Assembly (NCBI GenBank): GCA_963780185.1
Contig: CAWABA010000001.1
Location: forward strand, 96,001-160,000
Length of the DNA: 64,000 bases
DNA from: Candidatus Bathyarchaeota archaeon
GTDB lineage: Archaea; Thermoproteota; Bathyarchaeia; Bathyarchaeales; Bathycorpusculaceae
Reading direction: 5' to 3'
Position numbers and translations under genes: made by a program. The notes under the pieces were generated by a model. The model searched no databases. It had not been told where the DNA came from and saw only the letters and a list, made by a program, of their open reading frames with translations. Positions 4,775 through 47,980 of the stretch are shown piece after piece; the first letter of the stretch is position 1; the number at the start of each line of letters is the position of its first letter.

Positions 4775-6232
4775 CTATTTTATTTTGAGTAGTATTTTGG
4801 CGGTTTTCTTGGGGTGGCGGATAGCCCTTGCGATTTTGGCTCTGGTGAAGGTTGGGTTTGCCATGTTTGCTCGCATGCATAGAACCTGTAGGTCCTGCGC
4901 CGTGAATTCAGGGGTTTCAATCAGGGGTTCCGTGGCTGCTAAGGCGTAGTCGCAGAAGCCTTCTCTTAGGTATCCGCCCTGCTTCGCCTGTTCGTAGAGC
5001 GCTGTGCCGTAGACGGGCATAGCTATGCTAAAGATGAGGCTGTCGGCGCCGAGGCTTCGGAGTTTGTAGGCGAATTTTATGGTTTCTTCGATGTCAGCTT
5101 TGGTTTCGCCAATCAACCCGAGGACGAAGAAGCAGCCGACTTTGACGCCGACTTTTTTACATAAAATAACCGCGTTCTCAACAGCCTTCAAATCTAAGCT
5201 TTTCCCGATAACATCGTTGACAACTCGTTGGACTCCTGATTCTGGGGCAACACGGATTTTCTTGCAGCCTGCCCGCTTCATTTTTCGAAGCAAAGTTTCA
5301 TCCAGTGTGTCTGCACGAATGCCGTTCGGCGTAAACCATTCAAAATGCAAGCCTCTCTCGACGATTTGGTCGCAGATGTCTGCCATGCGCTTCTTGTCCA
5401 GCGTCATGTTCTCGTCGTAGAAGTCAATCTGCTTGACCCCGTAAGTCTTCACGACCGATTCAAGCTCGTCTACGACGTTTTTTGGGCTTCTGCCACGCCA
5501 AGTTCTTCCCCAAACCACGAAGTTTGAGCAGAAAACGCACTTGTACGGGCATCCTCTGCTGGTTGTCACGATTGTCCACGGTTTGCTTATCTCGCCTCTT
5601 AGCGGGTTCTCTTTGACGGCTTCGTTGTAAACCTTCATGGGAAGCAGATGCCTAGCGGGAAACGGCAGATAATCCAAATCCGCAATTAAAGTACGTGGAC
5701 CTGTGAGAGTCGGCTTTCCATCCTTCATGAACCCTAAACCACCGATACCGTTGAAATTTTTCTTGCCTAACTCGAGAGCATCAATTAACTCTAAAATTGT
5801 GTTCTCAGGTTCACCTATGACAACGAAATCTACGTTGGAATCTTCAAGGCATGCTTCGGGTCTGGCGGAGGGATGCTGACCCATCAGCACGACCAAAATC
5901 TTCTTGTTAACCGCTTTAACTGCTTCAACTACTTCAAAAGCGGTTTTCGACCAGCCTGAAAAGGGAATTTCAATGATGACTATTTCGGGTCTCCATTGCC
6001 CTACGCGTTCAGCGATAGTTTGCGCACTTAAACCGACACGGTACTTGGTTTCGTCCATTTCCACAAGGTTTTTCCAGCCCTCAGTCGGCGCGTCGATAAT
6101 GCAGACGGCATTCTTTTTTTCCAAGACAGCAGCCACTGAAGCTAAGACTATGGGTGGAAAAACGTTTGGTTTACCCCACGCTTTAGGCTGTATACGCGGC
6201 GGATTAATCAAGCAAACACGCATGCCGAGCAC
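4775..6232 (-). CDS. B12-binding (class B) radical SAM enzyme
   Basis: N-terminal LINPP..PP..LASVAAVL, GQHPS, IGEPE; TSRGCPYKCVFC; APESG. Confidence 0.9.
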   Translation of the reverse strand: MLGMRVCLINPPRIQPKAWGKPNVFPPIVLASVAAVLEKKNAVCIIDAPTEGWKNLVEMDETKYRVGLSAQTIAERVGQWRPEIVIIEIPFSGWSKTAFEVVEAVKAVNKKILVVLMGQHPSARPEACLEDSNVDFVVIGEPENTILELIDALELGKKNFNGIGGLGFMKDGKPTLTGPRTLIADLDYLPFPARHLLPMKVYNEAVKENPLRGEISKPWTIVTTSRGCPYKCVFCSNFVVWGRTWRGRSPKNVVDELESVVKTYGVKQIDFYDENMTLDKKRMADICDQIVERGLHFEWFTPNGIRADTLDETLLRKMKRAGCKKIRVAPESGVQRVVNDVIGKSLDLKAVENAVILCKKVGVKVGCFFVLGLIGETKADIEETIKFAYKLRSLGADSLIFSIAMPVYGTALYEQAKQGGYLREGFCDYALAATEPLIETPEFTAQDLQVLCMRANMANPTFTRAKIARAIRHPKKTAKILLKIK

Positions 6233-6276
6233 TTCTTAAGCCATAAGTACCCTTGGGGTTTGATTAAAACTTTGCA

Positions 6277-7272
6277 CTAAAACGGCAAAAAGTACAAACG
6301 CACGCCCACGATGACGCCGACGCAGATGAGCCCCCACAGAATAATCGTCACATCACGAATCCTCAAAGCACCCAGAATCTTCTCACCCGTCAGAGGCTCC
6401 TGGCTGTCGCCGAGAATGTATTGCCCAGGCTTTTCCAGTTGAATCCGTAGGGCCCCAGCCATCGCCGCCATCGGCCAACCGTGGTTTCTGCTCGGCGTTT
6501 TCTTATGGTCTCGGCGGGCGATTCTCCAAGCGTTCTTGGAGTCTTTCCGCAGAAGTGCAGCCGCCACAATCATGAGCAGGGCGGTGAGGCGTGTGGGTAT
6601 GTAGTTGACGACGGTGTCGAGGTTTGCGCTGAACCAGCCCGTGTTGATGTGTTCTTTGTCTTTGAAGCCAACCATTCCGTCAAGGGTGTTGATTGCTCGA
6701 AAAGCGATTGCGCCTGTGACGCCGAAGAGGGCGAAGGACATCATAGGTGAGAGTTTGAAGTCAATTAGGTTTTCAGCCATGGATTCGATGACTGCGCTGC
6801 CCATCTGCGCCCCGTTGAGGTTTGTTGAGTCTCGTCTTGAGAAATGACTGTATTTTTTTGCTTCATCAACCTCATCAGCTGCAATCGCTTTAGCCACGGC
6901 TTTCGCCCAGTCAGTTTCCAGCTTGATGCAGATAGTCATCTTCACTAAGATGATGCCGACGATGGCGTAGACGAAGATGCTGATGTAGGTGTAGATTGCC
7001 CACAAGCCAAAGTAGGCTGGGACGGCGAACGTGGCGATTACGGTTAAGCCGAGGAGGACGCCTAGGAATTTTTCGATTTTCGGGTTTGGGTTTTTGAAGT
7101 AAGGCTCAATTTTCTTGGTGAAATTGCCCATGACTACGGTGGGGTGAAGCTTGAAAACCCACTTCTCAGGGTAATTCGGCGACGGGTCCCCGACAGCCAA
7201 ATCTAACAGAATAGCCAAAGCCATGACGGCAACAGCGACTAATATGTTCAGTGCGGAGACGTTTGACACCAA
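6277..7272 (-). CDS. cbiB: Adenosylcobinamide-phosphate synthase CbiB (divergent)
   Basis: LDLAVGDP..HP, ESMAEN, RAINTLDGMVGFK, NYIPTRLTA, GWPMAAMAGAL. Confidence 0.85.
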   Translation of the reverse strand: MVSNVSALNILVAVAVMALAILLDLAVGDPSPNYPEKWVFKLHPTVVMGNFTKKIEPYFKNPNPKIEKFLGVLLGLTVIATFAVPAYFGLWAIYTYISIFVYAIVGIILVKMTICIKLETDWAKAVAKAIAADEVDEAKKYSHFSRRDSTNLNGAQMGSAVIESMAENLIDFKLSPMMSFALFGVTGAIAFRAINTLDGMVGFKDKEHINTGWFSANLDTVVNYIPTRLTALLMIVAAALLRKDSKNAWRIARRDHKKTPSRNHGWPMAAMAGALRIQLEKPGQYILGDSQEPLTGEKILGALRIRDVTIILWGLICVGVIVGVRLYFLPF

Positions 7273-7415
7273 CCAAGATTACGCTAAACAACGCCGCAAA
7301 AACTAATATCGATTACGGTTTGCGGTGGCGGCTGGGGGTGTGTTCCTGTTTTGGAACGTTTTGTTCCATGCGTAGAACTAAAAGCAGTCGCTGGCTATTG
7401 GTTGACGGTGAACCG

Positions 7416-8516
7416 ATGCGAAAAGGTTTCCTCTTAATCCTGTTAATATTGGCGGCTCTTAGCGTAGCTTGCGTCCTGCCAGTTAAAGCCCAGTTGGCGC
7501 AAACCATGCACATCAACACTGACGGCAGCGTTACCCCTTCAGGTTCCGCCATCGACCGAGTCGGGTCTACCTACACTTTAACCGCCGACTTGAGCAGCCC
7601 CATAATGGTTGAAGCAAACAACATTGTGCTGGACGGAGCAGGGTACACTCTTAGCGGTCCAAGCACAAGTGTACTCGTGAACAGCATTGGCGTAAACCTG
7701 ACCGCAGCCAACGTTACCGTGCAAAACATGCATGTAAGCAATTGGGGGGTCGGGGTGTTGGGCGCGTGGAACAACAACACGGTAGAAAACAACGTCTTCA
7801 CAGGTAACAACGAAGCTGTCGTCATTTACGGAGACACCTACGTCATACGCCAAAACAGCATAACAAACAGCACAACGGGACTATTCATTGACGGCGGCTT
7901 TCAACCACAAGGCGACAACATCCTCATAACTCAAAACCAAATAACAGAAAACAGTCAAGCATTCGACGTAACCAACAACAACATGGCAACTATTACAGGA
8001 AACAACGTGGCGGACAACGGTTTGATTTTGCTTCTTGCCACAAACACCGCAGGCACACTGCTTTACTACAACAATTTTACAAACAACCAACAAGTCCTGA
8101 CGATTCCGTTCGGGGGACCTACCGTGGAGGGTATTGTTCCGTTTTCGCCTGCTGGACAATGGGATAACGGGTCAGTTGGAAACTACTGGAGCGACTACAC
8201 GACAAGGTACCCTGATGCCGCGGAAATCGGTCACACGGGCATCGGCAACACTGCTTACGTAATCGTCAGCACCGTATCATACACGGAAGGCGACATAAGT
8301 GGAGTGGCAGTTTTGGGAAACGCTGCCGACAACTACCCGTTGATGGCGCCTGCCACGGTTTTGATCCAGCCGTCGCCAAACGCTTCTCCCGCCGCTTCAC
8401 CCGCGGTTCCAGAATATCCAACCTCAACGTTTCTGATGGTCTTGCTTGTCACAGCATGTTCGGCTGCTTTACTTATCTTTAAGCGCCAAGCAAAAAAGGT
8501 CAAATCGCAGGTTTAG
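7416..8516 (+). CDS. Secreted NosD/parallel beta-helix surface protein with C-terminal PEF-like membrane anchor
   Basis: Signal peptide, N-rich repeats, WDNGSVGNYWSDY, DNYPLM, VPEYP + TM + basic tail. Confidence 0.8.
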   Translation: MRKGFLLILLILAALSVACVLPVKAQLAQTMHINTDGSVTPSGSAIDRVGSTYTLTADLSSPIMVEANNIVLDGAGYTLSGPSTSVLVNSIGVNLTAANVTVQNMHVSNWGVGVLGAWNNNTVENNVFTGNNEAVVIYGDTYVIRQNSITNSTTGLFIDGGFQPQGDNILITQNQITENSQAFDVTNNNMATITGNNVADNGLILLLATNTAGTLLYYNNFTNNQQVLTIPFGGPTVEGIVPFSPAGQWDNGSVGNYWSDYTTRYPDAAEIGHTGIGNTAYVIVSTVSYTEGDISGVAVLGNAADNYPLMAPATVLIQPSPNASPAASPAVPEYPTSTFLMVLLVTACSAALLIFKRQAKKVKSQV

Positions 8517-8534
8517 GGGTGGCTGAGCGCTTTT

Positions 8535-10023: not shown

Positions 10024-11047
10024 TTATTCTTTGGGCCAGTATTTTGGTTTCATGCAATCGCCTTCAAGCAGCGACGGAAACAAGTTTAGAGGCCATGAAT
10101 GCGGGGCAGGAACTGGGAAAACATCGGCTTTCTCCACCCCTGGGATCCTGATAATTTTCCCATAAACTTCAAAAAACCTCTCGAAATCCTCAAGAGGAAT
10201 TGCACAGTACAAATCGTAGGGACCCATCAGCCTTATGATGACTATTACGTTTGGGATCTGCAGCAGCTGGGTATAGATGTCTGGCATTTTGCTGCGGTTT
10301 GAAAGTTTTATGTACACGTTTGCCTAGCGCTTGGTAACCGAGCTTATGCAAGTTAACCGTTATGGTTGAAAGCGTCAGCAGCCCTCCTCGAAGCTTCTTG
10401 TATCGTTGGATCACCGTTTTGCTTGAAATCTGCAACTCGGCTGCAATGTTCTTAAACGGCGTTCGAGAGTTCTGTGAAAGAATCAAGGCAATTCTCTTAT
10501 CAACATCATCCAAGTCAATTGACGCATGCATATGGTTGTTTAAAGTGGGCGGCTCAACGGTTTTTCGCGTGTCCTTCTGACCAAGCGGCTTGATAATTAG
10601 GTTCGCGGGAAACTCGACGTTTACCGCCTCTGCCCAAATCAATGCATCAACATGTTTGATGTTGCCGTTTGACTCTAAATCTTCAATTATGTCGCGCAAC
10701 TTGTGAAGGTCGCGCAATGCAACTTTTCCGAAAAAACTGTAGTGCCCCATGGGACCTACTAGCTCGCCTATGTAAGGTTTACTTTCAATAAATTTTCTAA
10801 CTTCTTTCTCGTTTTCAACCGAAGTTATCATTCCCAAATCAGCGATATGCTGATACCCCAAGCTGTGAGGGTTAACAAGCATCTTTTCGCCGTTGATTAC
10901 ACCGTCTCGCCACAACCGTTTATACCGCATTCGGACGGCAGTCACAGTGATTTTGCATTCGCCAGCGATGTCTGTGAAACTAGTTCGCGACTCTAAAAGT
11001 AGGATTTTAATAATTCTCGCATCAACTGCATCTAACTTTGCCGCCAA
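10024..11047 (-). CDS. Tandem-duplicated Lrp/AsnC transcriptional regulator (frameshift near 10320)
   Basis: Two wHTH units (LDAVDARIIKILLLESRTSF; LDDVDKRIALILSQNSRTPF), each followed by a RAM-like domain. Confidence 0.85.
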
Positions 11048-14404: not shown

Positions 14405-15220
14405 TTGCTTCAAGACCCAACGCTTAAAGAAAAAATTCATCAGGCAAACATATCCGTTCACCATCTTGAAGCACAATACTATGAACTTCTTCACCCCGAA
14501 GTGTACTCTAAACAGGAACAAAAAAGAATAACAGCTAAACTGAAAATGATCGACAAGCTTGTGACAGATAACCGCAAGATGGCTCTGGACTTTGGAGCAG
14601 GCACAGGCAACCTGACAGGCAAGCTTTTGCACTTGGGCTACACGGTTACAGCTGTAGATATCTCGCAGGAAATGTGCGGGATCCTGCAGAAAAAATACTT
14701 TGCCTACATGCAAAGCAAAAAGTTAACCGTGGTTTGCTCGCCTATTGAGGAGTTGACTTTTGAAGAGGGGCAATTTGACTTAATCACATGTTACTCTGTG
14801 CTGCATCATTTGCCCGACTACGTCGGCGCCCTCCGTTGCCTCTCTGTTTTTCTTAAGGAAGGCGGAGTCATCTACCTTGACCATGAAGCATCCCCTTTCT
14901 ACTGGAAAAATGAGCCAACCATGCTTGCAAGCCTTGTGAAAGGAATCTATTTGCATTCAAACCCGCTGTTAAACAGCTTGTACTTTCAAATGACTGGTTT
15001 GAGGGTTCCTTCAATCGATTATGAGTTGTCGGATTATTGGCATAAAAAAGAGCATGCGCTAGACCACGGCAGCATCGGGCAAGTGTTCAAAGACGAAAAC
15101 TACGAGTTTTCAACACGCACAGACTACTATGAAACCAGCACTTGGATTCCCAGCCCACTATCCATCATTTACCGTCTGTTGTGCAGCCCCGAAATGAGCT
15201 GTTGGATAGCCAAAAAGTAG
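14405..15220 (+). CDS. Class I SAM-dependent methyltransferase
   Basis: ALDFGAGTG, AVDIS, FDLITCYSVLHHLPD, LKEGG. Confidence 0.85.
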   Translation: MLQDPTLKEKIHQANISVHHLEAQYYELLHPEVYSKQEQKRITAKLKMIDKLVTDNRKMALDFGAGTGNLTGKLLHLGYTVTAVDISQEMCGILQKKYFAYMQSKKLTVVCSPIEELTFEEGQFDLITCYSVLHHLPDYVGALRCLSVFLKEGGVIYLDHEASPFYWKNEPTMLASLVKGIYLHSNPLLNSLYFQMTGLRVPSIDYELSDYWHKKEHALDHGSIGQVFKDENYEFSTRTDYYETSTWIPSPLSIIYRLLCSPEMSCWIAKK

Positions 15221-16625: not shown

Positions 16626-16720
16626 CCAGCAAACCCAACGACACCTCTGTCCCCCATGAAACGTTTGCTAACCCAAAACAGAAGGCAACCTAATAGCTTT
16701 AACTGAAACCCACACCCCGC

Positions 16721-17000: not shown

Positions 17001-17059
17001 CATGGGCTCGGCGTTTTGCAATAAAGCACCCGGAAAGTCTACTCCCGTTGACGCCATTG

Positions 17060-30023: not shown

Positions 30024-30102
30024 TCGGGTGCTTACAAGGTTGGAGCACCCAAACTTTATAAGGTCTTCCATTGGCATCTAAGAATAAATTGAGCGAGGGG
30101 AA

Positions 30103-30786: not shown

Positions 30787-30791
30787 GCGGG

Positions 30792-36199: not shown

Positions 36200-36817
36200 T
36201 TAAAATTTGGTTTTCATGATTTTTTCTGCTATTTCCAGGTCTTTGAGCGTGTTAATGTTGAGTAGGACTTCGAGTTCTTGCGTGATTAAGGCATTTGTTT
36301 CGATTTTTCCTTCGCCTTGGATTCTTGCGCCGTTTACAATGTTGACTCCTGACACCGCGTACCATATGCCCATGTACTCGTCGGTGGAGTCAATGGAGAG
36401 CCCCAAAGCTTCGCGGGCTTGAATGGGAACGAAAACCGCATAGAAATCTTTCCCGCAAGCCTCAAACTGGTTGACGATTTTGTCGAGAAACTTGCCTGTG
36501 ACAGCTGGCGAATCCGCTGGAACCGTCAAAACAGGACCCATCAAGTTGGCCATCCGCGTTGCCTGCTTGAGGTCGTTGTGGTACCCGTTGGCGTCGGTGC
36601 AAAGAACCTTCCAGCCCCTCTGCTTGCAGTGCAACTCGGTTTGGGGCGTGTTGGGGCTTGTGACCACGTAAAACTCGGAAACCCGCTCTGCGTCTGCAAC
36701 CGCTTCGACAACCCAGTCCAAGAGCGGTTTGCCCAGAAAGGGCAGAAGCGGCTTCTCCACTGGCAACCCGATGCGTTTGCCCCTGCCGCCAGCCATAATC
36801 AACGCGGGAACCTTCAT
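36200..36817 (-). CDS. cobY: Adenosylcobinamide-phosphate guanylyltransferase CobY (copy 1)
   Basis: ALIMAGGRGKR..EKPL, TSPNTP.T, GYHNDL, NINTLKDL; coupled to cobS. Confidence 0.85.
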   Translation of the reverse strand: MKVPALIMAGGRGKRIGLPVEKPLLPFLGKPLLDWVVEAVADAERVSEFYVVTSPNTPQTELHCKQRGWKVLCTDANGYHNDLKQATRMANLMGPVLTVPADSPAVTGKFLDKIVNQFEACGKDFYAVFVPIQAREALGLSIDSTDEYMGIWYAVSGVNIVNGARIQGEGKIETNALITQELEVLLNINTLKDLEIAEKIMKTKF

Positions 36818-37644
36818 AGAAGAATCAACACGCCTGCAAACAAAATAAGCGTAACTGCCCTTGCCACCTCGTTTGTTGCGCCGATGGCGTCGCCTGAAAC
36901 CCCGCCGAAAACTCTCTGCGAAACCTTCGCCATCACAAACGCCACTGGAACGCTAACAAGAACCAGCCCGACGGCAACCAACCCCACGTAAGGTTTGCCT
37001 ATCAAAGCGAAAAACGGGTAAACAATCAAGACTGAGAGCGGGTAGGCGATTGCGTTAAGTTTGGTTTTTGCTTTCTTCAGGAAAATCGAGCCTAACCCCT
37101 TATGCGTGGGTTTGCCGACCCAGACGATGGTAACCATGGATAGTTTGGCTGAGAGTTCGGCGGTGAGGATGGCTCCGAAAGCGTAGAGTGGGTTAATCAG
37201 GAACAAGCCTGCGAACGCGGCAAACTCTACAACCATCGCCAGCAGGGCTCCCCAGTAGGTTACGGTCCAGGCGTGGGCGACCATTTTGCGGTCATGGAGG
37301 TTTCGCAGTCCGAAGGCGTTGCCTAGGTCGATTAAGCCGTCGAAGTGTTGGAGTCCTGTGAGGACCAGTAGGAACGCGACGGTCATGGCGGCGACCGCAA
37401 GCTTCGAAAGCAAGTCAACTGGCAGGGCAACTAACGAGTTAACTAAGCTGAGCAGATAGTGGACTATGATGTTTACGCCGACAAAGTAGGTGCCTGCAAG
37501 CACGCCGATTAAGCCGCCTACGATGGGAAAAAGATAAACGTGCTCTGCAGTGGTGAATATGAAATCTTCTTTTCCGCCCACGGGGATTATGGTTAGGAAA
37601 GACAGCAAATCCCTAAAAGTTTTTATAGCTTTCGCAGGCGACAT
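36814..37644 (-). CDS. cobS: Cobamide synthase CobS (copy 1, altered motifs)
   Basis: SFLTIIP, FPIVG, TGLQHFDGLIDLGNA, FGGVSGDAIGATNE. Confidence 0.8.
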   Translation of the reverse strand: MSPAKAIKTFRDLLSFLTIIPVGGKEDFIFTTAEHVYLFPIVGGLIGVLAGTYFVGVNIIVHYLLSLVNSLVALPVDLLSKLAVAAMTVAFLLVLTGLQHFDGLIDLGNAFGLRNLHDRKMVAHAWTVTYWGALLAMVVEFAAFAGLFLINPLYAFGAILTAELSAKLSMVTIVWVGKPTHKGLGSIFLKKAKTKLNAIAYPLSVLIVYPFFALIGKPYVGLVAVGLVLVSVPVAFVMAKVSQRVFGGVSGDAIGATNEVARAVTLILFAGVLILL

Positions 37645-37691
37645 ATACCCTACAACTAGTGAATGGAAATATAGGCTTTGTCGTGGTAGTT

Positions 37692-38621
37692 ATGGGGGAC
37701 CTTAAAGGGAAAAAGATACTTGTAACGGGCGGAGCAGGGTTCATCGGGTTCCACCTATGCAAGAAGCTATCCGGTTTAACGTCTAACTTGACGGTTTACG
37801 ATAACATGTCAAACGGCAAAATGGAAAACGTCAAAGACGCGGCTGTGCCAAATTTTGTGAAAGGCGACATTCTTGACCTAAAAAAACTTCAGTCGCTTGA
37901 AAAACAGGAATTGATCTACCATTTAGCGGCCCAGGTCGTTGTCCCCTACTCCATGGAGAACCCGCTTATCGATTTTGAAACCAACGCCAAAGGAGCGCTG
38001 CATGTGCTTGAGAAAGCCCGCAAAGACGATGCAAAAATGGTTTTCGCGTCCAGCGCAGCGGTGTACGGTAACCCAACTCAGCTTCCGACCACGGAAGATT
38101 ACGGTTTTCACCCTGTCTCATGCTACGGCATGTCTAAGGTGGTCGGCGAAGAATACTGCCAGATGTACAGAGACCAATATCGGTTAGACGTAACCGTCGT
38201 GAGGTTCGCTAACGTGTACGGGCTCAGATGCCACGGCGTCATCCATGACTTCCTCGACAAAATCGCAAAGGACCCGAGCAAGCTAGAGATAATTGGCACG
38301 GGATTGCAGTCACGGGACCTGGTGAACGTCGCCGACGTGGTCGACGCACTCTTAACTGTGGGAGCAGACGAATCAACCAACGGCGAAGTCTACAACATCG
38401 GCATCGGGAAAACCACCAAAATCATCGACCTCGCCCACCTGATGCTCCAAATTCTTAACCTGCAAAACAAAACCAAAGTGACAACAACAGGCGTCTCTTG
38501 GCAAGGAGACATCGACACGATCTGGTTTGACAACTCCAAAGCCAAGAAAGCGTTACATTGGAACCCCAAAATAAGCCTCGAAGAAAGCATCAAAGAAGTC
38601 ATCGCTGACAGGAAACTTTAA
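37692..38621 (+). CDS. NAD-dependent nucleotide-sugar epimerase/dehydratase
   Basis: LVTGGAGFIG, HLAAQ, ASSAAVYG, YGMSK, RFANVYG. Confidence 0.9.
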   Translation: MGDLKGKKILVTGGAGFIGFHLCKKLSGLTSNLTVYDNMSNGKMENVKDAAVPNFVKGDILDLKKLQSLEKQELIYHLAAQVVVPYSMENPLIDFETNAKGALHVLEKARKDDAKMVFASSAAVYGNPTQLPTTEDYGFHPVSCYGMSKVVGEEYCQMYRDQYRLDVTVVRFANVYGLRCHGVIHDFLDKIAKDPSKLEIIGTGLQSRDLVNVADVVDALLTVGADESTNGEVYNIGIGKTTKIIDLAHLMLQILNLQNKTKVTTTGVSWQGDIDTIWFDNSKAKKALHWNPKISLEESIKEVIADRKL

Positions 38622-39514
38622 TGACTGCTCCAGCCCCAGCCAGAGGACTAATCGCCCTTCTGAGGCTTCCCTACTGGCTGATGACTGGCGGCTTATCTCT
38701 CTTAACAGCTTTTGCCATCACAAAAAACCCCACAGACCTAAACGTACAAACGATTCTGCTGATTTTCTTCTCGATGGCTTTCATAACATCCGCTGGCTTC
38801 GCAGTAAACGACTACTTCGACAGAGAAAGCGACGCATTAATCAAGCCAAAACGCCCCATACCCTCAGGCAGCCTGTCTCTTCGGCAAGTCGTGGCGGTTT
38901 CAAGCGTGCTTTTCACGGCAGGCTTAATCATGGCTTTATTCATCAACCCGCTCAGCTTCACAATAATCGCCGCAGACTCCGCCTTGCTGCTGGTTTACTC
39001 AACAGTTGTAAAGCGCAAGTCAGGGTTCGCAGCCAACGTCTTGGTGGGAATCCTAACAGGCACCGCCTTTCTCTTCGGGGAAGCAACGATCTCCAGCCCC
39101 CCAACCGTAAGCATAATTTCCCTGAGCCTGTACCCGATAGCGTTAGGCACAGTAGGCGGCAACATCCTGCGCGATGTGCTGAGCCTTGACGGTGACTCAA
39201 AAACGGGGTACCCGACGCTTCCGCAGAAAATCGGCATAAACGATTCAGCGAAGGTGGCGGCTGGGTTTTTCTTGTTAACTGGTTTTCTTGTGCCGCTTCC
39301 ATTCTTCGTTGGCGAGGGCAACTTTGACTTTTTCTATCTGGTGCCCATCCTTGTTTGGAGTGTGCTTCTGATTTACTCTTCAATTCGCCTAGCAACGGCG
39401 TCTTCGAATGTTTTGAATGTACGCAAGTATGAACGGGTAATTACCATGTCGATGATTCTGCTTCCGTTAGCGTTGATTCTTGAGGCAGTGTCCCACATGA
39501 TTGGAGGACTATAG
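38621..39514 (+). CDS. UbiA-family prenyltransferase, DGGGP synthase-like
   Basis: NDYFDRESD..KPKRPIPSG; YS..K; RDVLSLDGD...YPTLP. Confidence 0.85.
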   Translation: MTAPAPARGLIALLRLPYWLMTGGLSLLTAFAITKNPTDLNVQTILLIFFSMAFITSAGFAVNDYFDRESDALIKPKRPIPSGSLSLRQVVAVSSVLFTAGLIMALFINPLSFTIIAADSALLLVYSTVVKRKSGFAANVLVGILTGTAFLFGEATISSPPTVSIISLSLYPIALGTVGGNILRDVLSLDGDSKTGYPTLPQKIGINDSAKVAAGFFLLTGFLVPLPFFVGEGNFDFFYLVPILVWSVLLIYSSIRLATASSNVLNVRKYERVITMSMILLPLALILEAVSHMIGGL

Positions 39515-39515
39515 A

Positions 39516-40982
39516 GTGAGCGAAACAAAAAGTATCTGTCCAGAATGCCAGAAAAAAATAGACGCCCAACTGCGGCAAGCTAACGGCAAAATAAAAATCA
39601 CCAAACAATGCCCCGAACACGGCGACTTCGAAGCCACCCACTGGCAAAGCACACCCGTCTTCAACCACATGCAAACCTACGACCAATTCCAGTACCTCGG
39701 CGACTTAAACGCCCCCAAAAACCCAGAAGGCTGCCCCTACAAATGCGAAACCTGCACCGAACACGCCTCGGGTACGGTCATCGGCGTCATTGACGTGACG
39801 AAACGTTGCAACCTTCGCTGCGCAATTTGCTTCTCCACGTTTCCCGAGCAAGGAACCGACTATGAGCCAACCAAAGAGCACCTTGTAAAAATGCTTGAGT
39901 TCGTAAGTCAAGCTAACCCCAAGCCGCCAGCCATCCTGTTCTCAGGCGGAGAACCTCTCGAACGGGAGGACATGCCTGAAATCATCGGTGTTGCCCACAA
40001 ACTAAAGTTCATGACTATTTTGGCAACCAACGGGACCCATTTGGTTGACACTCCAGGGTTGGCGAAGAAACTGAAAGCCAATGGCTTAAACATTGTTTAT
40101 TTATCGTTTGACAGTTTTCACGACGATTTTAACACAAAGATTCGGGGAAAAGCGCTGCTTGAGGAGAAACTGAAGGCTATTGAAGTTTGCCGCAAATACG
40201 ACATGGAGATCATTTTAGTTAACACGTTGATGAAGAGCCTAAACGACAAAGAAGTCGGCGACATGATACGGTTCGCCGCAAAAAACACCGACATAGTCCG
40301 CGGATTAATCTTCCAACCCATCGCGTTCACCGGCAGAGCCACCGAGAACCCTTTCCGCGAAAACTTCCGCGAATGGTCCTTCGCAGAAGACGTTGAAAAA
40401 CAAACAAACGGCGAAATCAAAGCCACCGACCTATTCCCCATGTCCGTTATGACTTCGCCGATCAAGATAATGCGCAAATTCATGCAGAAGCCATGGCCCC
40501 TCTTCTCCTGCAGCCCACAGTGCGGCATCGTAAACTGGATCTACGTTTCAAAAGAGGGCAAAATGTTCCCCATTAACCGCTTCGTCAACTTTGACCGCTT
40601 CTTCTCCACCATCAGAAAAACCGCTGAATCCGCAGAATCCAGAGGCAAATTCTCGCTGCTTTCCTCACTGTTTATGGCGTCCATGCTTTCTATGAACATG
40701 TTGCTGGTGACGCAGGAAGTGGGCATGCTGACCTTGGTGAACTCGGTTATGCGTATGCATCTTTCGCCGTCGTATCAGTCGCTTGGCAAAATCCGCCGAA
40801 GAATCTTTCTGCTGGGCTGCATGGCGTTCATGGACAGCTACAACTTTGACGTTAACCGTGTCCGACGTTGCGTCGTGCACTACATCACGCCTGACCTGAA
40901 AATCATACCGTTCTGCGCCTACAACAACATCCACAGAGTCGCCATCGAGAAACAATACGCAGAAAAACAAAAAAAGCGATAG
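39516..40982 (+). CDS. tes: Tetraether lipid synthase Tes (GDGT-MAS/MJ0619 family radical SAM)
   Basis: CPEC..CPEHG N-terminal metal site, GCPYKCETC..H, CNLRCAICF, CSPQCG, MAFMDSYNFD, RCVVHYITPD..IPFCAYN. Confidence 0.85.
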   Translation: MSETKSICPECQKKIDAQLRQANGKIKITKQCPEHGDFEATHWQSTPVFNHMQTYDQFQYLGDLNAPKNPEGCPYKCETCTEHASGTVIGVIDVTKRCNLRCAICFSTFPEQGTDYEPTKEHLVKMLEFVSQANPKPPAILFSGGEPLEREDMPEIIGVAHKLKFMTILATNGTHLVDTPGLAKKLKANGLNIVYLSFDSFHDDFNTKIRGKALLEEKLKAIEVCRKYDMEIILVNTLMKSLNDKEVGDMIRFAAKNTDIVRGLIFQPIAFTGRATENPFRENFREWSFAEDVEKQTNGEIKATDLFPMSVMTSPIKIMRKFMQKPWPLFSCSPQCGIVNWIYVSKEGKMFPINRFVNFDRFFSTIRKTAESAESRGKFSLLSSLFMASMLSMNMLLVTQEVGMLTLVNSVMRMHLSPSYQSLGKIRRRIFLLGCMAFMDSYNFDVNRVRRCVVHYITPDLKIIPFCAYNNIHRVAIEKQYAEKQKKR

Positions 40983-41978: not shown

Positions 41979-42503
41979 TTAACTTACGACTTGAATCGGC
42001 AACACACAGAAGTCATACGTAAACTGCCATGAGCCGCCGTTCAAAGAATTGTAACTGTACAGTTCAAAAACAACCCAGTAGCTGCCAACCTGATTTTCAG
42101 TCACCGTGATTGACTGATGCCAGCTTTTCCCATCCGCCAAAGTCGTGTTGTAGGTTGCGGTGGGTTGGGTATTGACTGGGGATGAGTCAAGGTTGCTGGT
42201 TATTTTCACTTGAACTTGGTATTGCACGGTCCACCCCATGTTGTTGATAACTGTAAGCGGTACACTAAAGGTGCTGTTCTGGTTAGCAACCAGAAGCTGC
42301 GGGTAATTCTCCGCTTTGTTCTGTGCATCAAGAAGGTAAATCGTGCTGTACCCTTTCGGCGCGGGTTTGAAGAACACGTAGTAGCCTGCAAGCATCGACG
42401 CAATGATGATTAAGGCCAGAAAGATAGCGACTATGTAGCCTTTATCATCGTTTATGCCTATTTTCTTTCCAATGTTTTTGACAGACTCTAACCGTATCCG
42501 CAT
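41979..42503 (-). CDS. DUF1616-like membrane-anchored protein
   Basis: TM followed by YSTIYLLD..KAENYP; VVFELY. Confidence 0.65.
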   Translation of the reverse strand: MRIRLESVKNIGKKIGINDDKGYIVAIFLALIIIASMLAGYYVFFKPAPKGYSTIYLLDAQNKAENYPQLLVANQNSTFSVPLTVINNMGWTVQYQVQVKITSNLDSSPVNTQPTATYNTTLADGKSWHQSITVTENQVGSYWVVFELYSYNSLNGGSWQFTYDFCVLPIQVVS

Positions 42504-43182
42504 CTAGAAATCCCTTGAATATAGTGCTAAATATTTCGATACCTGACTTAAATGGTTTAAGCTTGGTCTTGCCGTATATCCGGGGCTTGTAGGTCGTGGG
42601 GATTTCAACCATATTGTACCCAACCTTGGCGAACTGCACCAGCATTTCCGTGGCAAACGCCATGTCCCCTTCTACCAGCGGCACGTTGTCAATGCATTCG
42701 TGTGATATTGCTCGGAAACCTGATTGGGTGTCGCTGAGTATTTGGCTGTAGAAGAAGTCGTAAACCATTGTTATGATTTTGTTTCCGATGAAGTTGGTGA
42801 ATCCCATCGCTTTTTTCGGGTCGAACATGCGGGTGGCTAAAACCATGTCCGCGTCCTTCTCAAGCATCCGCTCAACTAAGCGGTTGATGTGTTTTACTTC
42901 GTAGGTTCCGTCACCGTCAACCATAACGATGATGTTTCCCTTCGCGTTTTTCATGCCTGTCCGCAAGGCTATTCCGTAGCCGCGTCTTGGCTCAATAATT
43001 AGCCTGCAAAAATTTGTGTCTTTAACAAGTTCCATTGTTCCGTCGGTGGAGTTGCCGTCGACAACGATGATTTCGTTGGGGTACGCTAACTCTTTGTGGA
43101 TAGTGTTGACTGCCTCAAGTATGTTTCCTGCTTCGTTAAGTGTCGGAATGACCACCGAAACCATTTCGACTTTTGATGTCAT
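42445..43182 (-). CDS. GT2 glycosyltransferase (DPM-synthase-like)
   Basis: VVIPTLNEA, VVDGNSTDGT, DGDGTY, DTQSGFRA. Confidence 0.9.
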   Translation of the reverse strand: MTSKVEMVSVVIPTLNEAGNILEAVNTIHKELAYPNEIIVVDGNSTDGTMELVKDTNFCRLIIEPRRGYGIALRTGMKNAKGNIIVMVDGDGTYEVKHINRLVERMLEKDADMVLATRMFDPKKAMGFTNFIGNKIITMVYDFFYSQILSDTQSGFRAISHECIDNVPLVEGDMAFATEMLVQFAKVGYNMVEIPTTYKPRIYGKTKLKPFKSGIEIFSTIFKGFLDADTVRVCQKHWKENRHKR

Positions 43183-43226
43183 AGCTAAACTTTCCCTGCG
43201 AAGGCTATACTGTTTCCACATCTTGG

Positions 43227-44384
43227 TTAAATAAGCTCTTCGTATATTTCCACGAGACGTTCAACGTTTCTGTCCCAGCTGTATTTTTCTTCAACCGCAG
43301 CTCGAAGCTCCGGCTTACGAGAAGATAAATCATCACTTGAATATTCAAAGATTGCTTTCGCCATAGGCTCAGGCTGGTTGGGCGGCACAAGAGCACCGAA
43401 GTCATCAGTCAAGATTTCGCGGATTCCGCCAACGTCCGTGGCTACAACTGGCAAGCCGCAAGCCATGGCTTCCAGCGCAACCAAAGGCAAACCTTCCCCG
43501 GATTTAGATGGCAACACAAAAAAGTCAGCCGCGTTATAGCAAAACGGCAAATCCTCATCGCTGACAAACCCGGCAAGCCGAAAGTTCTTTTCTATCCCTA
43601 ACTCCCGAATTCTGGTTTGAACGCCGTTTTGGTCGGGTCCTTTTCCAACGACGAGGAAAACAACGTTCGGGTTCTTTTTGATGGCGAGGTTTGCGCTTTC
43701 AATAAGGGTGTCGATGCCGTTCTTGTAAACCAGACGCCTCACAGTTATCGCTACCTTTGCGCTCTTCGGAATCCCAAATTTAGCTCGCATTTCCTCCCGT
43801 TTTCCCGGCAGATGCCTGAAATGCTCCAAGTCAACGCCGTTGTGGAGGACTTTGATTTTGTCTGGTTTTGCACCTAAGCTTAGGACGTACTCTTTAGTCG
43901 CGTTGCTTACAGTAATTATTCTGTCAGCTTCCCTGAGTGTCTCTTTCCCAACGGCTAGGTCGTTGAGGCGCTCGACGTTGTCAAACATGCTGTCGTACTG
44001 GATGAACGTGTTATGCTGGGTTAAAACGAAGGGCTTGTGGTATCTTTTGGCAAGTTTAGCGGCGATAAGCGAGGTTAGGTAGGGGTGACCGTGCGCGTGG
44101 ACTATGTCGCTGCCTTTTACGGCGCTGAGGAAGGTTCCAAGGCTTGTCGGCGTCGGGATAGAGTAGGGTATGCCGAGGCGGAAGCCCGTGTTTAGAGACT
44201 CATAGCATTCGACAGGTATGCCATCAACTACGTAGGTTTTTGGGGTGTCGATGCGGTTTGTAACAACCGTGGGTTTAAAGTTCAGGTTCATCAGCCGTTT
44301 GCTCTGTTCATAAACAACCCTTTCTATCCCGCCAACATGGGGCAGAAAAGTATGCGTAACAATGCACAGCCTTGTTTGAACCAT
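43227..44384 (-). CDS. GT4 glycosyltransferase
   Basis: FLPHVGGIE, HNGVD, EGLPLVALEAMACGLPVVATDVGG. Confidence 0.9.
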   Translation of the reverse strand: MVQTRLCIVTHTFLPHVGGIERVVYEQSKRLMNLNFKPTVVTNRIDTPKTYVVDGIPVECYESLNTGFRLGIPYSIPTPTSLGTFLSAVKGSDIVHAHGHPYLTSLIAAKLAKRYHKPFVLTQHNTFIQYDSMFDNVERLNDLAVGKETLREADRIITVSNATKEYVLSLGAKPDKIKVLHNGVDLEHFRHLPGKREEMRAKFGIPKSAKVAITVRRLVYKNGIDTLIESANLAIKKNPNVVFLVVGKGPDQNGVQTRIRELGIEKNFRLAGFVSDEDLPFCYNAADFFVLPSKSGEGLPLVALEAMACGLPVVATDVGGIREILTDDFGALVPPNQPEPMAKAIFEYSSDDLSSRKPELRAAVEEKYSWDRNVERLVEIYEELI

Positions 44385-44804
44385 GGAGCCCAACAGCGTA
44401 AACTCCCAGCCAACATACGATAATAAGCTTTCTGGTAAATCTGCAGACAAGTGTTGCCGTCGGGAAATTTCAAATGGAAACATTTAATTGAAATCGGCGT
44501 TTTGCATCGAATTTTTTCTTGTATGTTTGTTGGCTGCTTAAACCGTAATGCTTATATGAAAAGGTTGGATAAACCAACCAAACATGGAATTGATAATTTG
44601 CTGAACATCGAGAAAAAATCGCTTGTTCGAGTCAAACTTCTATCGAAGGGCAAGTTATCTGCATATTTGACTGCCAAAACCCTATTTAGTTGTTCACCCG
44701 TTTCTGGACTTTTTCCCCTTCAATCGTTTGCAAGTCACGTTCACCTTAAACCCGCACGGAATTCGGGGTTGAGGGTGAAGGACATTTAGGGAGGACAAAA
44801 TGAA

Positions 44805-45492
44805 ATGAAAGTTGTTGCTTCTTGGAGCGGCGGCAAAGACAGCTGCCTACGCATATTACTTGGCAACCCAGCAAGGCTGCGAAGTAGTCAAAATCTTGAC
44901 CATGATGATGAGCAAAGAAAAATCAAACTTCCACATGATACCAGCAGGCATCCTTGACGCCCAATCCGACGCAATAGGCATTCCCATAGTGAAACAGCAG
45001 GCAACTCCAAAAACCTACGAAGATGACTTCAAAGCTGCGCTGCGACAGTTCAAAGCCGAAGGCGCCGAAGGCTTAGTCACAGGCGACATCTACGAGGTAT
45101 CGGGGCATGAAGAGGGTTGGCTGGGCAGGGTACTTAAAGAAGTCGGGTTGAAACCGATTAAGCCGCTGTGGATGCTTGACACGAAGCAGATTTACCTAGA
45201 CTACTTAAAAACGGGTTTCAAAGCCACGGTGGTTCGCACTAACCTGGAGAAGCTGGGCGTGGAGTGGCTTGGGAGGGTGCTGGACAGAAAATTCTACGAC
45301 GACATCCTCAAACTCGGCAACGTTGACCCATGCGGCGAAGGCGGCGAATACCACACCGTCATCACGGATGGACCCACGTTTAAGAAAAAGATTGAAATCC
45401 TAGAAACACAAAAGCACAAGCTAGACGGCGGCTTCGGATGCCTCGAAATCAAAAGGTTCGAAGTCAAGCCGAAAGGCAAGGGTAAAGCGTAG
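44805..45492 (+). CDS. DUF71/Dph6-like ATP pyrophosphatase, cob-operon associated (frameshift near 44846)
   Basis: MKVVASWSGGKDSC read from ATG 44805; TGDI, PLW, WLGR, DPCGEGGEYHT. Confidence 0.85.
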
Positions 45493-45493
45493 A

Positions 45494-46595
45494 ATGGACC
45501 AATCACTCGACGTAATAATCGCGAATAACGAGTTGAAAGCGAAGGCTTTCCTCGACGAAATCTCAGGCAAAAACCCTCTTTTCATCTGCACAATAGCAAC
45601 AACTGAAACCGGCAAAATCGCGGGAATATCTGCGGCTGGTGCGAACCCTGAGTTCACGGATTATACTCCTCCCGCCGATGCTGAATTGCTCCTTCTTGGC
45701 AGATGCAAATCCATCAGCGGCGTCCCCATAACTCCTGACGGTATCCCCACGCCTGGGTTGATCACAAGGTCTGCTCTGCAGCTTGCCGACATTCCCGTGT
45801 TGATTGCCAGCGGCGGCGTTGAGGATAAAGCCGCAGATTCCCTTTTTGGATTTAGGCGGAAGTCCCGGCAGAGACATTCGAAGCGGCAACGCAGTTGACA
45901 ATGTTGCGGAAGTTATTGAACGAGCAAAGACTGCGGGGAAAAACCTCGCGAAAGCTGTGGATTACCTTGTGATTGGCGAGAGCATCCCCGGTGGGACAAC
46001 AACCGCGCTTGGCGTGTTGTCGGCGCTGGGTGTGAAGGCGGAGGGAAAAGTAAGCAGCACCTTGCCCAACAATCCCCATAGCTTGAAGGCTGAGACGGTT
46101 CGGGCGGGTTTGGCGGCTGCAGGCGAACGTTTCGGCAGTTTAGCCAAAGACCCTGTTAAGGCTATCTCCTGCGTTGGCGATCCGATGATGGCAGCGTTTA
46201 CAGGTTTGGTTGTCGGCGCGGCGGGGCAGGTTCCTGTTTTGATGGCGGGTGGAACGCAGATGAGCGCTGTTTTAGCCCTCATTAATGCTTTGCAGCCCGA
46301 TGTTCTCTGCAACGTGGCGGTTGGCACGACCCGGTGGGTTGCAAAGGACAAGTCGTCTGACCTCAAAGGCATAGTGAAGCAGTTCTGTGATGTGCCGATT
46401 TTAGCCGCGGACCTGAACTTTGGCGGTTCACGTTTCCCAGGGCTGCAAATTTATGAGACTGGTTTGGTGAAGGAAGGGGTGGGCGCAGGCGGCGCTTCAA
46501 TTGCGGCGATGGCTAAGCTTGGCGGCGCTGTGACGGCTGACCTATTGCTTAAAGAGATAGAGCGCAATTATGGTTTGCTGATGGGTTTGAAGTGA
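45494..46595 (+). CDS. cobT: Archaeal nicotinate-nucleotide:base phosphoribosyltransferase CobT (frameshift near 45820)
   Basis: GISAAGA..YTPPADAE, PTPGLITR, GESIPGGTTTA, GGTQM, VKEGVGAGG. Confidence 0.88.
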
Positions 46596-46596
46596 G

Positions 46597-47370
46597 ATGG
46601 TTATTAAAGAGCTCAAGAACCTTCTGTCTTTCCTCACAATCTTTCCCGTAGCAATGGACAAGGACATGCTTACTGACTGCGCAAAAGGCATGTGGACTTT
46701 TCCGCTTATCGGCGCTTTCCTCGGTTTAATTGCAGGAGTTTTCGGCTGGGTAGCTGACCAATTTGTGCCAGGCATCGTTGTGGGCGCTTTGGTCTTGGCG
46801 GTTCTGCTGCTTATAACTGGGCTTCACCACACGGACGGGCTGCTGGATTTCGGCGACGGCGTCATGGCTCACGGCACACCCCAACACAAAATTGAGGTTA
46901 TGCATGACCAGCTAACAGGCGCAGGCGGCTTATCGTTGGGCATCATGACGATGCTGATTACCGCTTTAGCTATCGGGCAAATCAGCGGCAACGGACTCTT
47001 CAAAATCCCTCTAATCGTCGGCGGCATCATCGCCGTTGAGGCTTCAGCTAAGCTTTCGATGACCGTGATGGCTTGGGCTGGAAAATCGGTTCATCAAGGC
47101 ATGAACTCATCGTTCCTCGAAGCCATGAGCGGCAGCAAAGGCACCCTGCGTTTGGTCGCTGCGCTGGTGCTTTCTTTCGCGGTGGCTTTGCCTCTGCTGG
47201 GTTGGGCAGGCGCCTTCGTCGTTTTAACGGCTGTGGTTACGAGTTTGGTGATGGTTGCAGTTGCCCACAGAAACTTCGGCGGGGTCACAGGCGACGTTTT
47301 CGGAGCCACAAACGAGATAACCCGAATGGTCTGCGTGATTGTTTTGTTGGCGGTGGCTGCTTGGGCGTAA
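46597..47370 (+). CDS. cobS: Cobamide synthase CobS (copy 2, canonical)
   Basis: TGLHHTDGLLDFGDG, MHD..TGAGG, FGGVTGDVFGATNE. Confidence 0.9.
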   Translation: MVIKELKNLLSFLTIFPVAMDKDMLTDCAKGMWTFPLIGAFLGLIAGVFGWVADQFVPGIVVGALVLAVLLLITGLHHTDGLLDFGDGVMAHGTPQHKIEVMHDQLTGAGGLSLGIMTMLITALAIGQISGNGLFKIPLIVGGIIAVEASAKLSMTVMAWAGKSVHQGMNSSFLEAMSGSKGTLRLVAALVLSFAVALPLLGWAGAFVVLTAVVTSLVMVAVAHRNFGGVTGDVFGATNEITRMVCVIVLLAVAAWA

Positions 47371-47980
47371 CTGCGCTTGTGATGGCTGGCGGCAAAGGAA
47401 CCCGCATGCAAATCCGCGAGGAAAAACCCTTAATCAAAGTCTGCGGCAAACCCGTTATCGAATACGTGATTGCGGCGTTGCAGCACGCAAAGAAAATCAA
47501 CCGCATCATCGTGGCAACAAGTGCATGTACGCCTAAAACCGCCCATCACCTGAGCAGCTTTCCCGTGCAGGTGGTTGAGACGCCTGGGCAAAGACTATGT
47601 TTCGGACATGGGCTATGCGAGCCAAAACCTCAAACTCGGCGTTTTCTTAGCTATCGCGGCTGATTTGCCTTTGGTCACGGGCGAAGTGCTCGACGCAATT
47701 GTTGAACGTTACGAATGCTGCGGCAAACCCGCGTTGACCGTTGCGGTTCCCCTCGAAACTAAAGAGGCGGCTCGGAATGAGCGTAGAGTACTCGTTTAAG
47801 ATGGATGATAAAGACGTGGTTCCCGTCGGCATCAACGTGATTGACGGTCGCAAACGGTACGGCGACGAATGGCTCGACCAAGACATCTACCTGCTGGACC
47901 TAGAAGAACTCGCAGTCAACATCAACACCGTGCATGAGCTGCAACTCGCCGAACATTTACTTGCCAATCGGAAACAATGA
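47361..47980 (+). CDS. cobY: CobY (copy 2), two frameshifts
   Basis: ALVMAGGKGTRM..EKPL; YVSD; ADLP; PVGIN; NINTVHEL. Confidence 0.8.

Follow-up and report, generated by a model that had tools for sequence, protein, structure and literature searches.

A 64,000-nucleotide stretch of the genome of a soil-type archaeon, Candidatus Bathyarchaeota archaeon (assembly GCA_963780185.1, here labelled G000; 2.75 Mb in 13 contigs, 93.5% complete), covers most of an ~85-kb accessory island (C1:60-148 kb) that is confined to a subset of Bathyarchaeia. In this island a battery of B12-binding radical S-adenosylmethionine enzymes (B12-rSAMs) is encoded together with cobamide genes, a second tetraether synthase (Tes), a second UbiA prenyltransferase and several glycosyltransferases (GTs). 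We consider it possible, with a probability of roughly 45%, that the island is an accessory system that tailors tetraether lipids with its own cobamide supply. Family-level gene identities, paralogy, conserved linkage and phyletic co-occurrence are the observations on which this reading is built, and from them we infer every substrate and product.

The genes of the stretch (C1:96001-160000, the full length of which is hereafter called the window) were identified by listing open reading frames (ORFs) and by Pfam and NCBIfam scans, and the phyletic sample was one set of 151 Bathyarchaeia genomes. Three genomes served for comparison: G003 (~80% protein identity), G014 (~70%) and G115, a complete genome from another family. 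We use R1-R6 for the six B12-rSAMs of the window, Ru1-Ru3 for three located upstream of it, and a prime mark (CbiB', CobD', CobY', CobS', UbiA', Tes') for an island-specific second copy.

Nine of the genome's 14 B12-rSAM loci lie within 49 kb (C1:70.6-119.4 kb), and the same region holds four of its five PF01902 genes alongside CbiZ, CbiB, CobD, CobT, two CobS and two CobY; with such fractions of both families in one region, the clustering is beyond chance. The initial annotation, which had reported six B12-rSAM genes clustered with cobamide assembly, tetraether lipid and glycosylation genes at window positions 4775..47980, was borne out in its inventory, all of which was recovered at or near the coordinates given. 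The 40 kb upstream of the window encode Ru1, Ru2, Ru3, CbiZ, a fourth DUF71 protein and an MtrH-family methyltransferase, as well as a CN hydrolase, proteins resembling asparagine synthase and HemN, a pair of AhbD-like rSAM/SPASM proteins, several large surface proteins with PQQ propellers, and two proteins with 12 transmembrane (TM) segments. Because further B12-rSAMs, CbiZ and a DUF71 gene lie upstream, the interval first delimited takes in only part of the unit.

The proposal that these genes form a conserved unit also held, as they are linked in related genomes. Gene order from CbiZ through the ECF transporter is near-identical in G003, and the same gene blocks recur in rearranged order in G014. 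In G115, almost the whole gene set occupies a compact ~58 kb (C1:428.7-486.5 kb) at 40-63% identity, bounded on one side by housekeeping GatB and an amidase. This compact island includes CobS, MtrH, CbiZ, the CN hydrolase, rSAM/SPASM, HemN-like protein, six B12-rSAMs, CbiB, the amidohydrolase, RnfD-Fer4 and methyltransferases, and further PQQ/Ig proteins, the Gms-like protein, GT4, two GT2, DUF4234, CobD, CobS', Tes', UbiA', SDR, DUF1616 and another GT4. In G000, G003, G014 and G115 alike, the B12-rSAMs share the island with Tes' and the Gms-like gene. Across 77 R1 loci, a CbiB match lies within 10 kb in 61 and an amidohydrolase match in 48, and other rSAM paralogues are found there in 40-57 loci, counts to be read against the 70 of 77 in which R1 itself passes the same filter; at more distant R1 loci the adjacency of CbiB is lost, and rSAM paralogues and surface proteins are retained.

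Across the sample, Tes' and R1 share one phyletic pattern. Tes is present in 132 of the 151 genomes and an orthologue of Tes' (46-100% identity) in 15, 13 of which also encode a canonical Tes; an R1 orthologue is present in precisely these 15 genomes and in no others of the sample. CobS' (at least 42% identity) was found in 14 of these, the fifteenth (G171) having only a contig-end fragment, and a single copy of CobS is present in 25 of the 26 other CobS-positive genomes. Similarly, CbiB occurs in 38 genomes, with two copies in 13 of the 15 island genomes, the island copy scoring lower, and one copy in the other 23. The Gms-like gene is more widespread (78 genomes), with orthologues of at least 55% identity in the same 15 island genomes and of at most 49% elsewhere. 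All five further R1-bearing named genomes encode both Tes' and canonical Tes, and in G174 Tes' and R1 lie ~190 kb apart, a co-occurrence without adjacency. Island-free genomes of families f1 and f7 showed no CbiB or CobS matches.

Tes and a UbiA resembling digeranylgeranylglyceryl phosphate (DGGGP) synthase had been listed by the initial annotation; both are present, but they are not the housekeeping copies. Elsewhere in the genome a second UbiA (C1:304270-305139) scores 252.8 bits and a canonical Tes on contig C11 scores 654.6 bits, both higher than the window copies (164.9 and 462 bits), which are therefore divergent second paralogues. Tes' has 12 cysteine columns in common with canonical Tes and is not the lineage's orthologue of it, as the 117 other Tes-positive genomes carry only homologues 32-42% identical to Tes'. 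The window rSAM/SPASM protein has, judging by its predicted sequence, the architecture of a glycerol monoalkyl glycerol tetraether synthase (Gms): the AhbD model aligns to residues 118-466 with 311 bits, below the AhbD cut-off of 500, and the N-terminal part is common to many homologues of 460-500 aa, with alignments starting at residues 10-40. Ten full-length homologues in a cluster look-up had generic names, came from Methanofastidiosum and Promethearchaeota and included no verified Gms. Read with the published description of Gms (PMC11214058, in part), this protein strengthens the suggestion that the locus acts on tetraether lipids. No rSAM of the island reaches the cut-off of any characterised family. 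The DUF362 protein overlapping the Gms-like gene may serve radical SAM enzymes as a redox partner; a second DUF362 paralogue stands directly beside another B12-rSAM outside the island (G000:C6:353.0-355.4 kb), mirroring the window pair. As for glycosylation, DUF1616 and GT4 are conserved with Tes' in both families and the GT2 at 42445-43221 in family f1 only. Hgs (CrtC/AttH, PF07143) had no matches in the genome.

The B12-rSAMs are a varied set. The B12-binding domain PF02310 followed by the radical SAM core PF04055 was detected in R1, R2, R5, R6 and Ru1-Ru3; in R3 the two fall on separate fragments, and in R4 only PF04055 scored in Pfam, its N-terminal part being placed via tblastn. The motif CX3CX2C occurs once in each of the genome's 12 intact B12-rSAM ORFs, a count that leaves out the fragmented R3 and R4. 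The R5 orthologue is longer than R5 as called, so that its true start may lie further upstream. A tree of 233 B12-rSAM homologues from G000 and the fetched loci resolved old orthogroups (R1, 68 rows; R3/R5, 37; Ru1, 38; Ru2, 13; R2/R4/R6/Ru3, 65) with SH-aLRT support of 99-100, which indicates an enzyme battery that diverged long ago, as opposed to a recent tandem array. Each of the nine enzymes, or its intact orthologue, scores below the cut-off of every characterised class B family scored from NCBIfam (HpnJ, BchE, HpnR, BzaD, PhpK, Sden_1168, ApyD, TIGR04072, TIGR04013, TIGR04014 and TIGR04190), with best scores of 150-255 bits against cut-offs of 251-750. TIGR04190 was considered as a stand-in for Grs and rejected, as no control genome, including that of S. 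acidocaldarius, reached its cut-off. The nearest solved structures (AprD4, 9ccb, OxsB and TokK; E 1e-26 to 1e-5) are uninformative on substrate, and for R2 the ESM Atlas yielded nothing more specific than generic B12-rSAM clusters, in which Bathyarchaeota were the most frequent taxon. About 74 records under the names Bathyarchaeota or Bathyarchaeia hold an R1 orthologue (61-87% identity); the best 120 matches of the R1 homologue search are all at least 74% identical, with no distant named relatives among them. Four loci with an R1 neighborhood at 70-84% identity (L044, L050, L077 and L087) are filed under metagenome-assembled genomes of Acidoferrum, Limnocylindrales, Methanocella and Actinomycetes, labels that probably reflect mis-binning.

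That the locus supplies its own cobamide, as first proposed, was not supported in the sense of de novo synthesis. No match above cut-off was obtained for CbiC, CbiD or CobQ in this 93.5%-complete genome, which seems to be without corrin-ring synthesis, and cobamide would thus be salvaged and remodelled; contig C9 carries a CbiA-like amidotransferase and a second, frameshifted cbiB-cobD pair. CbiZ, the four DUF71 proteins, the PF01261 gene and the ECF transporter together read as a salvage and remodelling kit. CbiB' scores 236 bits (NCBIfam cut-off 165.9), an intact CobD' orthologue 269.5 bits (CobD cut-off 290.55), and the four island DUF71 genes 88-123 bits against a Dph6 cut-off of 197.3, the fifth PF01902 gene, on C11, being left out of this scoring. 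The PF01261 gene, which sits between CobY and the ECF transporter, is a CbiR-like candidate from its domain and gene context. On sequence comparison CbiB', CobD', CobS' and CobY' are second, divergent, island-specific copies, and the alternative raised by the initial annotation, that the locus builds a non-standard cobamide, therefore stays alive. The MtrH-family gene (263 bits, cut-off 271.4) adjoins Ru3 (L010:11143-12054; G000:C1:87.1-88.1 kb), and its G115 orthologue (C1:432.0-433.3 kb) adjoins a small B12-binding protein; it could be a link from methyl-tetrahydromethanopterin to corrinoid within the island.

If the island tailors tetraether lipids with its own cobamide supply, it would operate as three modules. 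Imported corrinoids would be rebuilt into the cobamide required by the B12-rSAMs through a salvage and remodelling module of CbiZ, four DUF71-B12 proteins, the CbiR-like PF01261 protein, the amidohydrolase, the ECF transporter, the DUF71-CobT-CobS-CobY cluster and CbiB'/CobD'/CobY'/CobS'. The radical SAM module comprises nine class B enzymes, which fall into five old orthogroups, together with three AhbD-like SPASM proteins, one of them with Gms architecture, and one HemN-like protein. An envelope lipid module holds the SDR-UbiA'-Tes' operon, DUF1616, five GTs, the large GT-C-like membrane proteins and the anchored surface proteins. UbiA' and Tes' would produce a separate, second pool of ether lipid that spans the membrane, which the Gms-like enzyme would bridge; the B12-rSAMs would methylate or otherwise alter inert carbons of its chains or backbone, and the GTs would decorate the lipid products.

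Several observations weigh against this scheme. The rSAMs lie 12-35 kb from Tes' in G000, with an unrelated catalase and toxin-antitoxin pairs between them, and in genera g14 and g18 the nearest B12-binding match on the same contig is 54-80 kb from Tes', most matches being on other contigs. The tightest partner of R1 is CbiB' and not a lipid gene, and in distant relatives R1 adjoins other rSAM paralogues and surface proteins, not lipid genes. The top matches of the B12-rSAMs are the generic BchE, HpnJ and ApyD models (cut-offs 480-750), and many island genes are frameshifted in the G000 assembly. Moreover, the 15 island genomes are related, all coming from two families within a single order, and few independent events therefore stand behind the co-occurrence. 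Finally, duplicated CbiB', CobD', CobY' and CobS' would be unneeded for simple cofactor supply, and they fit as well a reading centred on the cobamide itself. In that reading, which we regard as unlikely although a real contender, these four enzymes and the amidohydrolase would turn scavenged corrinoids into a cobamide particular to the lineage (one that differs, for example, in its linker or lower ligand), some B12-rSAMs would, in the manner of BzaD and BzaE, have that cofactor or its ligand as substrate, DUF71-B12, CbiZ and the CbiR-like gene would assist, and the lipid genes would be mere neighbours. It accords with the complete second set of loop-assembly paralogues confined to island genomes, the proximity of CbiB' to R1 in 61 of the 70 loci carrying R1, the conserved CbiB'-amidohydrolase-SPASM block, the four DUF71 copies beside CbiZ and the PF01261 gene, the failure of CbiC, CbiD and CobQ to exceed their cut-offs in this genome, and the lack of CbiB or CobS matches in island-free f1 and f7 relatives. 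It sits poorly with the number of rSAM paralogues, nine in five old orthogroups, when no known cobamide pathway employs nearly so many, with BzaD scores of 91-148 bits against a cut-off of 450, and with the single CobT of the genome; Tes', UbiA' and the Gms-like gene, moreover, co-occur perfectly with the island and sit between cobamide genes in several genera, which mere neighborhood cannot explain.

Two further explanations rank lower. We find it quite unlikely that there is no single system at all and that a mosaic accessory island, carrying unrelated functions, was inherited or transferred as a block, with linkage and co-occurrence reflecting shared descent only. The restriction of all 15 positive genomes to two families of one order, the toxin-antitoxin pairs, catalase and ~1.1-kb inverted-repeat-flanked insert inside the island, and the reshuffling of gene order between genera all speak for such a mosaic; yet ~35 gene families are still linked at 40-63% protein identity, between flanks that differ, Tes' and R1 co-occur in G174 despite their ~190 kb separation, and B12 users with B12 salvage genes form an obvious functional pair. 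Slightly less likely again is that the B12-rSAMs act on other substrates, such as the co-located anchored surface proteins or their glycans, or plant-derived organic matter (for example, methoxylated aromatics), within a general B12-requiring envelope or accessory-metabolism island. Anchored, sequon-rich PQQ-propeller/Ig-like proteins with signal-like N-termini stand among the rSAMs in all lineages examined, a pair of 12-TM proteins and five GTs are at hand, the MtrH-family methyltransferase lies beside Ru3 and its G115 orthologue beside a small B12-binding protein, and ApyD and TIGR03975, models of the type found for ribosomally synthesized and post-translationally modified peptides, are among the best rSAM matches. 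These matches, however, are all far under cut-off, no precursor-peptide-like gene or protease/export set was seen, and the reading leaves Tes', UbiA' and the Gms-like gene without an explanation.

A further proposal, which we hold to be improbable even when its two versions are taken jointly, is that the island supplies the missing genes for the unconventional tetraethers with methylated backbones (butanetriol and pentanetriol types) that are linked to this Bathyarchaeia order. In one version, at least one of the nine B12-rSAMs would be a backbone C-methylase acting on UbiA'/Tes' lipids. In the other, CobD', CbiB', CobY' and CobS' would have left cobamide synthesis and would build a phosphate-linked lipid backbone or head group; in its carbon skeleton threonine-phosphate, the substrate of CobD, equals a glycerol phosphate that bears a methyl group. 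The butanetriol backbone is built with a methionine-derived methyl group. Butanetriol tetraethers are cited in a review as a biomarker of a genus in the same broad group (PMC12694404).

Elements of the island resemble several known systems. Gms has been described as an AhbD homologue with an N-terminal extension of ~100 aa; gms, grs and gmm cluster, and Bathyarchaeota have many Gms homologues and several B12-rSAM copies of the Gmm2 clade (Garcia et al., 2024; PMC11214058, in part). Like these clusters, the island pairs an N-terminally extended AhbD-like rSAM/SPASM protein with B12-rSAMs, a likeness of architecture and context; unlike them, it has nine B12-rSAMs in five orthogroups, a second Tes, a second DGGGP synthase-like UbiA and a full cobamide salvage kit. 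A Bathyarchaeal B12-rSAM, Ted from Candidatus Bathyarchaeota B1_G15, has been described in a preprint as a tetraether desaturase on glycerol dialkyl glycerol tetraethers (GDGTs), and the Ted-Hgs pair thus offers a precedent for such an enzyme acting on GDGT chains without methylating them (bioRxiv 10.1101/2025.10.20.683597, in part). Unlike that pair, G000 has no CrtC/AttH match in its genome, and Ted homologues were defined in the preprint as at least 500 aa long, compared with 431-485 aa for the island enzymes and ~490 aa for Ru1 orthologues. A second Tes homologue has been reported in 22 of 322 methanogen genomes, and one of this type, MA_1114, made no GDGT (Zeng et al., 2022; PMC8941075, in part); like these methanogens G000 carries two Tes homologues, although Tes', unlike the methanogen copy, belongs to an operon that also encodes a second UbiA and an SDR, and co-occurs with a B12-rSAM battery.

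The cobamide genes have similar precedents. Clustering of DUF71-B12 with cbiB and B12 transport genes is a published prediction (de Crecy-Lagard et al., 2012; PMC3541065, in part), and the island, as in archaeal cobinamide salvage, groups CbiZ, CbiB, CobD, CobY, CobS, CobT, PF01902 genes scoring below Dph6 and a transporter; it departs from that scheme in its four DUF71 genes and its duplicated CbiB'/CobD'/CobY'/CobS', interleaved with rSAM and lipid genes. CbiR of Akkermansia muciniphila is a PF01261 phosphodiesterase for cobamide remodelling that is encoded beside cobamide genes, and a homologue was noted in just one archaeal taxon (bioRxiv 10.1101/2020.09.02.280537, in part). The island PF01261 protein is likewise encoded beside genes for cobamide loop assembly, the likeness being one of domain and context only. 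BzaD and BzaE are class B B12-rSAM methylases of the anaerobic benzimidazole pathway that are encoded beside cobamide genes. The island's class B rSAMs share that setting and differ from BzaD in their low scores on its model (TIGR04385); no search was made for BzaA, BzaB or BzaF.

The features of the window are collected in Table 1.

Table 1. Positions of island genes in the window, numbered from its first nucleotide.
Feature	Position	Strand	Remarks
RnfD/NQR2-like domain fused to 4Fe-4S dicluster	1..1005	+	Frameshifted or cut in G000; 453 aa in G003; kept in G115 island
Amidohydro_3 metal amidohydrolase	2454..3719	+	Orthologue 522-535 aa; travels with CbiB' and R1
R1, class B radical SAM, 485 aa	4775..6232	-	CPYKCVFC at residue 228; orthogroup is the island marker
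CbiB', adenosylcobinamide-phosphate synthase family	6277..7272	-	45 bp upstream of R1, same strand
NosD-like beta-helix protein	7251..8516	+	N-terminal and C-terminal hydrophobic segments
R2, class B radical SAM, 464 aa	8535..9929	-	Pfam/NCBIfam
AsnC-type double helix-turn-helix regulator	10190..11047	-	Conserved beside R2 and methyltransferase
PQQ-like beta-propeller/Ig-like protein, 904 aa	11558..14272	+	Signal-like N-terminus, C-terminal anchor, 10 NxS/T sequons
Class I SAM methyltransferase (Methyltransf_11)	14405..15220	+	Conserved in island
R3, class B radical SAM	15221..16625	-	Split over three frames (at least 2 frameshifts); 458 aa in G003
DUF71/PF01902 PP-loop ATPase, DUF71-B12-like	18116..18853	+	Below Dph6 cut-off
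R4, class B radical SAM	18958..20402	+	Split over three frames (at least 2 frameshifts); 448 aa in G003
R5, class B radical SAM, 431 aa as called	20480..21775	+	Orthologue 453 aa
R6, class B radical SAM, 478 aa	21932..23368	+	Long branch inside R2/R4/Ru3 clade
DUF71/PF01902, second copy	24759..25505	-	PF01902
CobD', L-threonine-phosphate decarboxylase-like pyridoxal-phosphate enzyme	28369..29374	-	Frameshifted in G000
DUF4234/DUF6693 small membrane protein	29448..30077	-	Invariably adjoins CobD'
GT2	30103-30786	+	First of GT2-GT2-GT4 run
GT2	30792-31785	+	Middle of run; frameshifted in G000
GT4	31722-32981	+	Last of GT2-GT2-GT4 run
DUF362 protein	33750..34715	-	Overlaps end of Gms-like gene
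Gms-like rSAM/SPASM	34699..36126	-	AhbD-like core at residues 118-466 with 117-aa N-terminal extension
CobY', MobA-like nucleotidyltransferase	36200..36817	-	TIGR00454, 122.5 bits (cut-off 174.7)
CobS', second divergent CobS	36814..37644	-	TIGR00317, 112.4 bits (cut-off 110); seven hydrophobic segments; island-specific
NAD-dependent epimerase/dehydratase (SDR)	37659..38621	+	First gene of Epim-UbiA'-Tes' operon
UbiA', divergent DGGGP-synthase-like prenyltransferase	38621..39514	+	164.9 bits
Tes', tetraether-synthase paralogue	39501..40982	+	NF045702, 462 bits (cut-off 450); PF23545 zinc ribbon
DUF1616 membrane protein, GT2 (42445-43221), GT4 (43227-44483)	41979..44483	-	Convergent on Tes'
DUF71/PF01902, third copy	44812..45492	+	Heads DUF71-CobT-CobS-CobY cluster
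CobT, archaeal type	45494..46595	+	TIGR00303, larger piece 275.7 bits (cut-off 240); one frameshift; 366 aa in G003
Canonical CobS	46597..47370	+	TIGR00317, 161.8 bits (cut-off 110)
Canonical CobY	47331..47980 (start approximate)	+	Frameshifted; G003 copy 218 aa, TIGR00454 147.4 bits (cut-off 174.7)
PF01261 gene (AP endonuclease 2/xylose-isomerase-like TIM barrel)	48744..49633	-	Frameshifted; 293 aa in G003
ECF-type transporter: CbiQ and two ABC ATPases	50342..52833	-	Second ATPase frameshifted in G000

The 904-aa PQQ/Ig protein is one among several such surface proteins, and the portions of G003 and G014 that were fetched contain no orthologue of the NosD-like protein. Upstream, two conserved proteins of 690 and 799 aa (L010:12622-14694 and 14941-17340; G000:C1:88.6-93.3 kb) each combine ~12 hydrophobic segments at the N-terminus with a large C-terminal part; they gave no Pfam matches, and their shape resembles that of GT-C glycosyltransferases. 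The syntenic regions fetched from G003 and G014 have no equivalent of a full-length catalase (PF00199, 663 bits) at 25703-27214, an odd insert in a lineage regarded as anaerobic. Small genes of defence or addiction type are scattered through the island, namely an MNT/HepT pair (33041-33699), a double helix-turn-helix protein beside a weak GIY-YIG match (23490-24202) and a DUF5615/PIN-like gene (49679-50122). To the right of the island, two genes of GH130, the mannoside phosphorylase family (58713-59612 and 62447-63376), flank a GT4 and a GH127-like gene. An Rfam scan of the window found no families at gathering score.

At least nine window genes are frameshifted in G000 (R3, R4, CobT, CobY, CobD', one GT2, one ABC ATPase, the PF01261 gene and the RnfD-Fer4 gene), and the G003 orthologues of all nine are intact; the canonical cbiB and cobD on contig C9 (G000:C9:154.9-156.9 kb) are likewise frameshifted. 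Indel errors in the consensus could account for these lesions, as could true decay of the system in this genome. The junctions contain short homopolymer runs at most and no long ones, which is not decisive, and contigs from two public DNA runs (shares 0.08 and 0.06), all short, span none of them; no RNA run was listed as containing the stretch. Between R3 and the DUF71 gene lies ~1.1 kb of extra ORF-poor DNA (window 16626-18115; the G003 gap is 344 bp), bracketed by a 16-nt inverted repeat (16936-16951 / 18090-18105), which may be the remnant of a mobile element; contigs from the other runs end close by, at 16775-16860.

Clusters of lipid-tailoring rSAMs and clusters for cobamide salvage are each already known. 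In the literature searched, we found no description of the two fused into one conserved island, of island-specific second copies of six enzymes (Tes, UbiA, CbiB, CobD, CobS and CobY), or of the island's presence/absence pattern across genera. Bathyarchaeia tetraether lipids serve as biomarkers in sediment and peat, and the papers searched name no genes for several tetraether modifications, including backbone methylation and extra chain methylation. The island provides a short testable gene list: nine B12-rSAMs, a second Tes, a second UbiA and a Gms-like enzyme. Its clean presence or absence between sister genera (present in g1, g14, g17, g18, g19 and g25; absent from g13, g15, g16, g20 and g7) could, in addition, be matched to lipidomes. 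Taken together, the gene content points to a lineage in which cobamide salvage, with duplicated nucleotide-loop enzymes, appears to be retained mainly to feed one accessory system.

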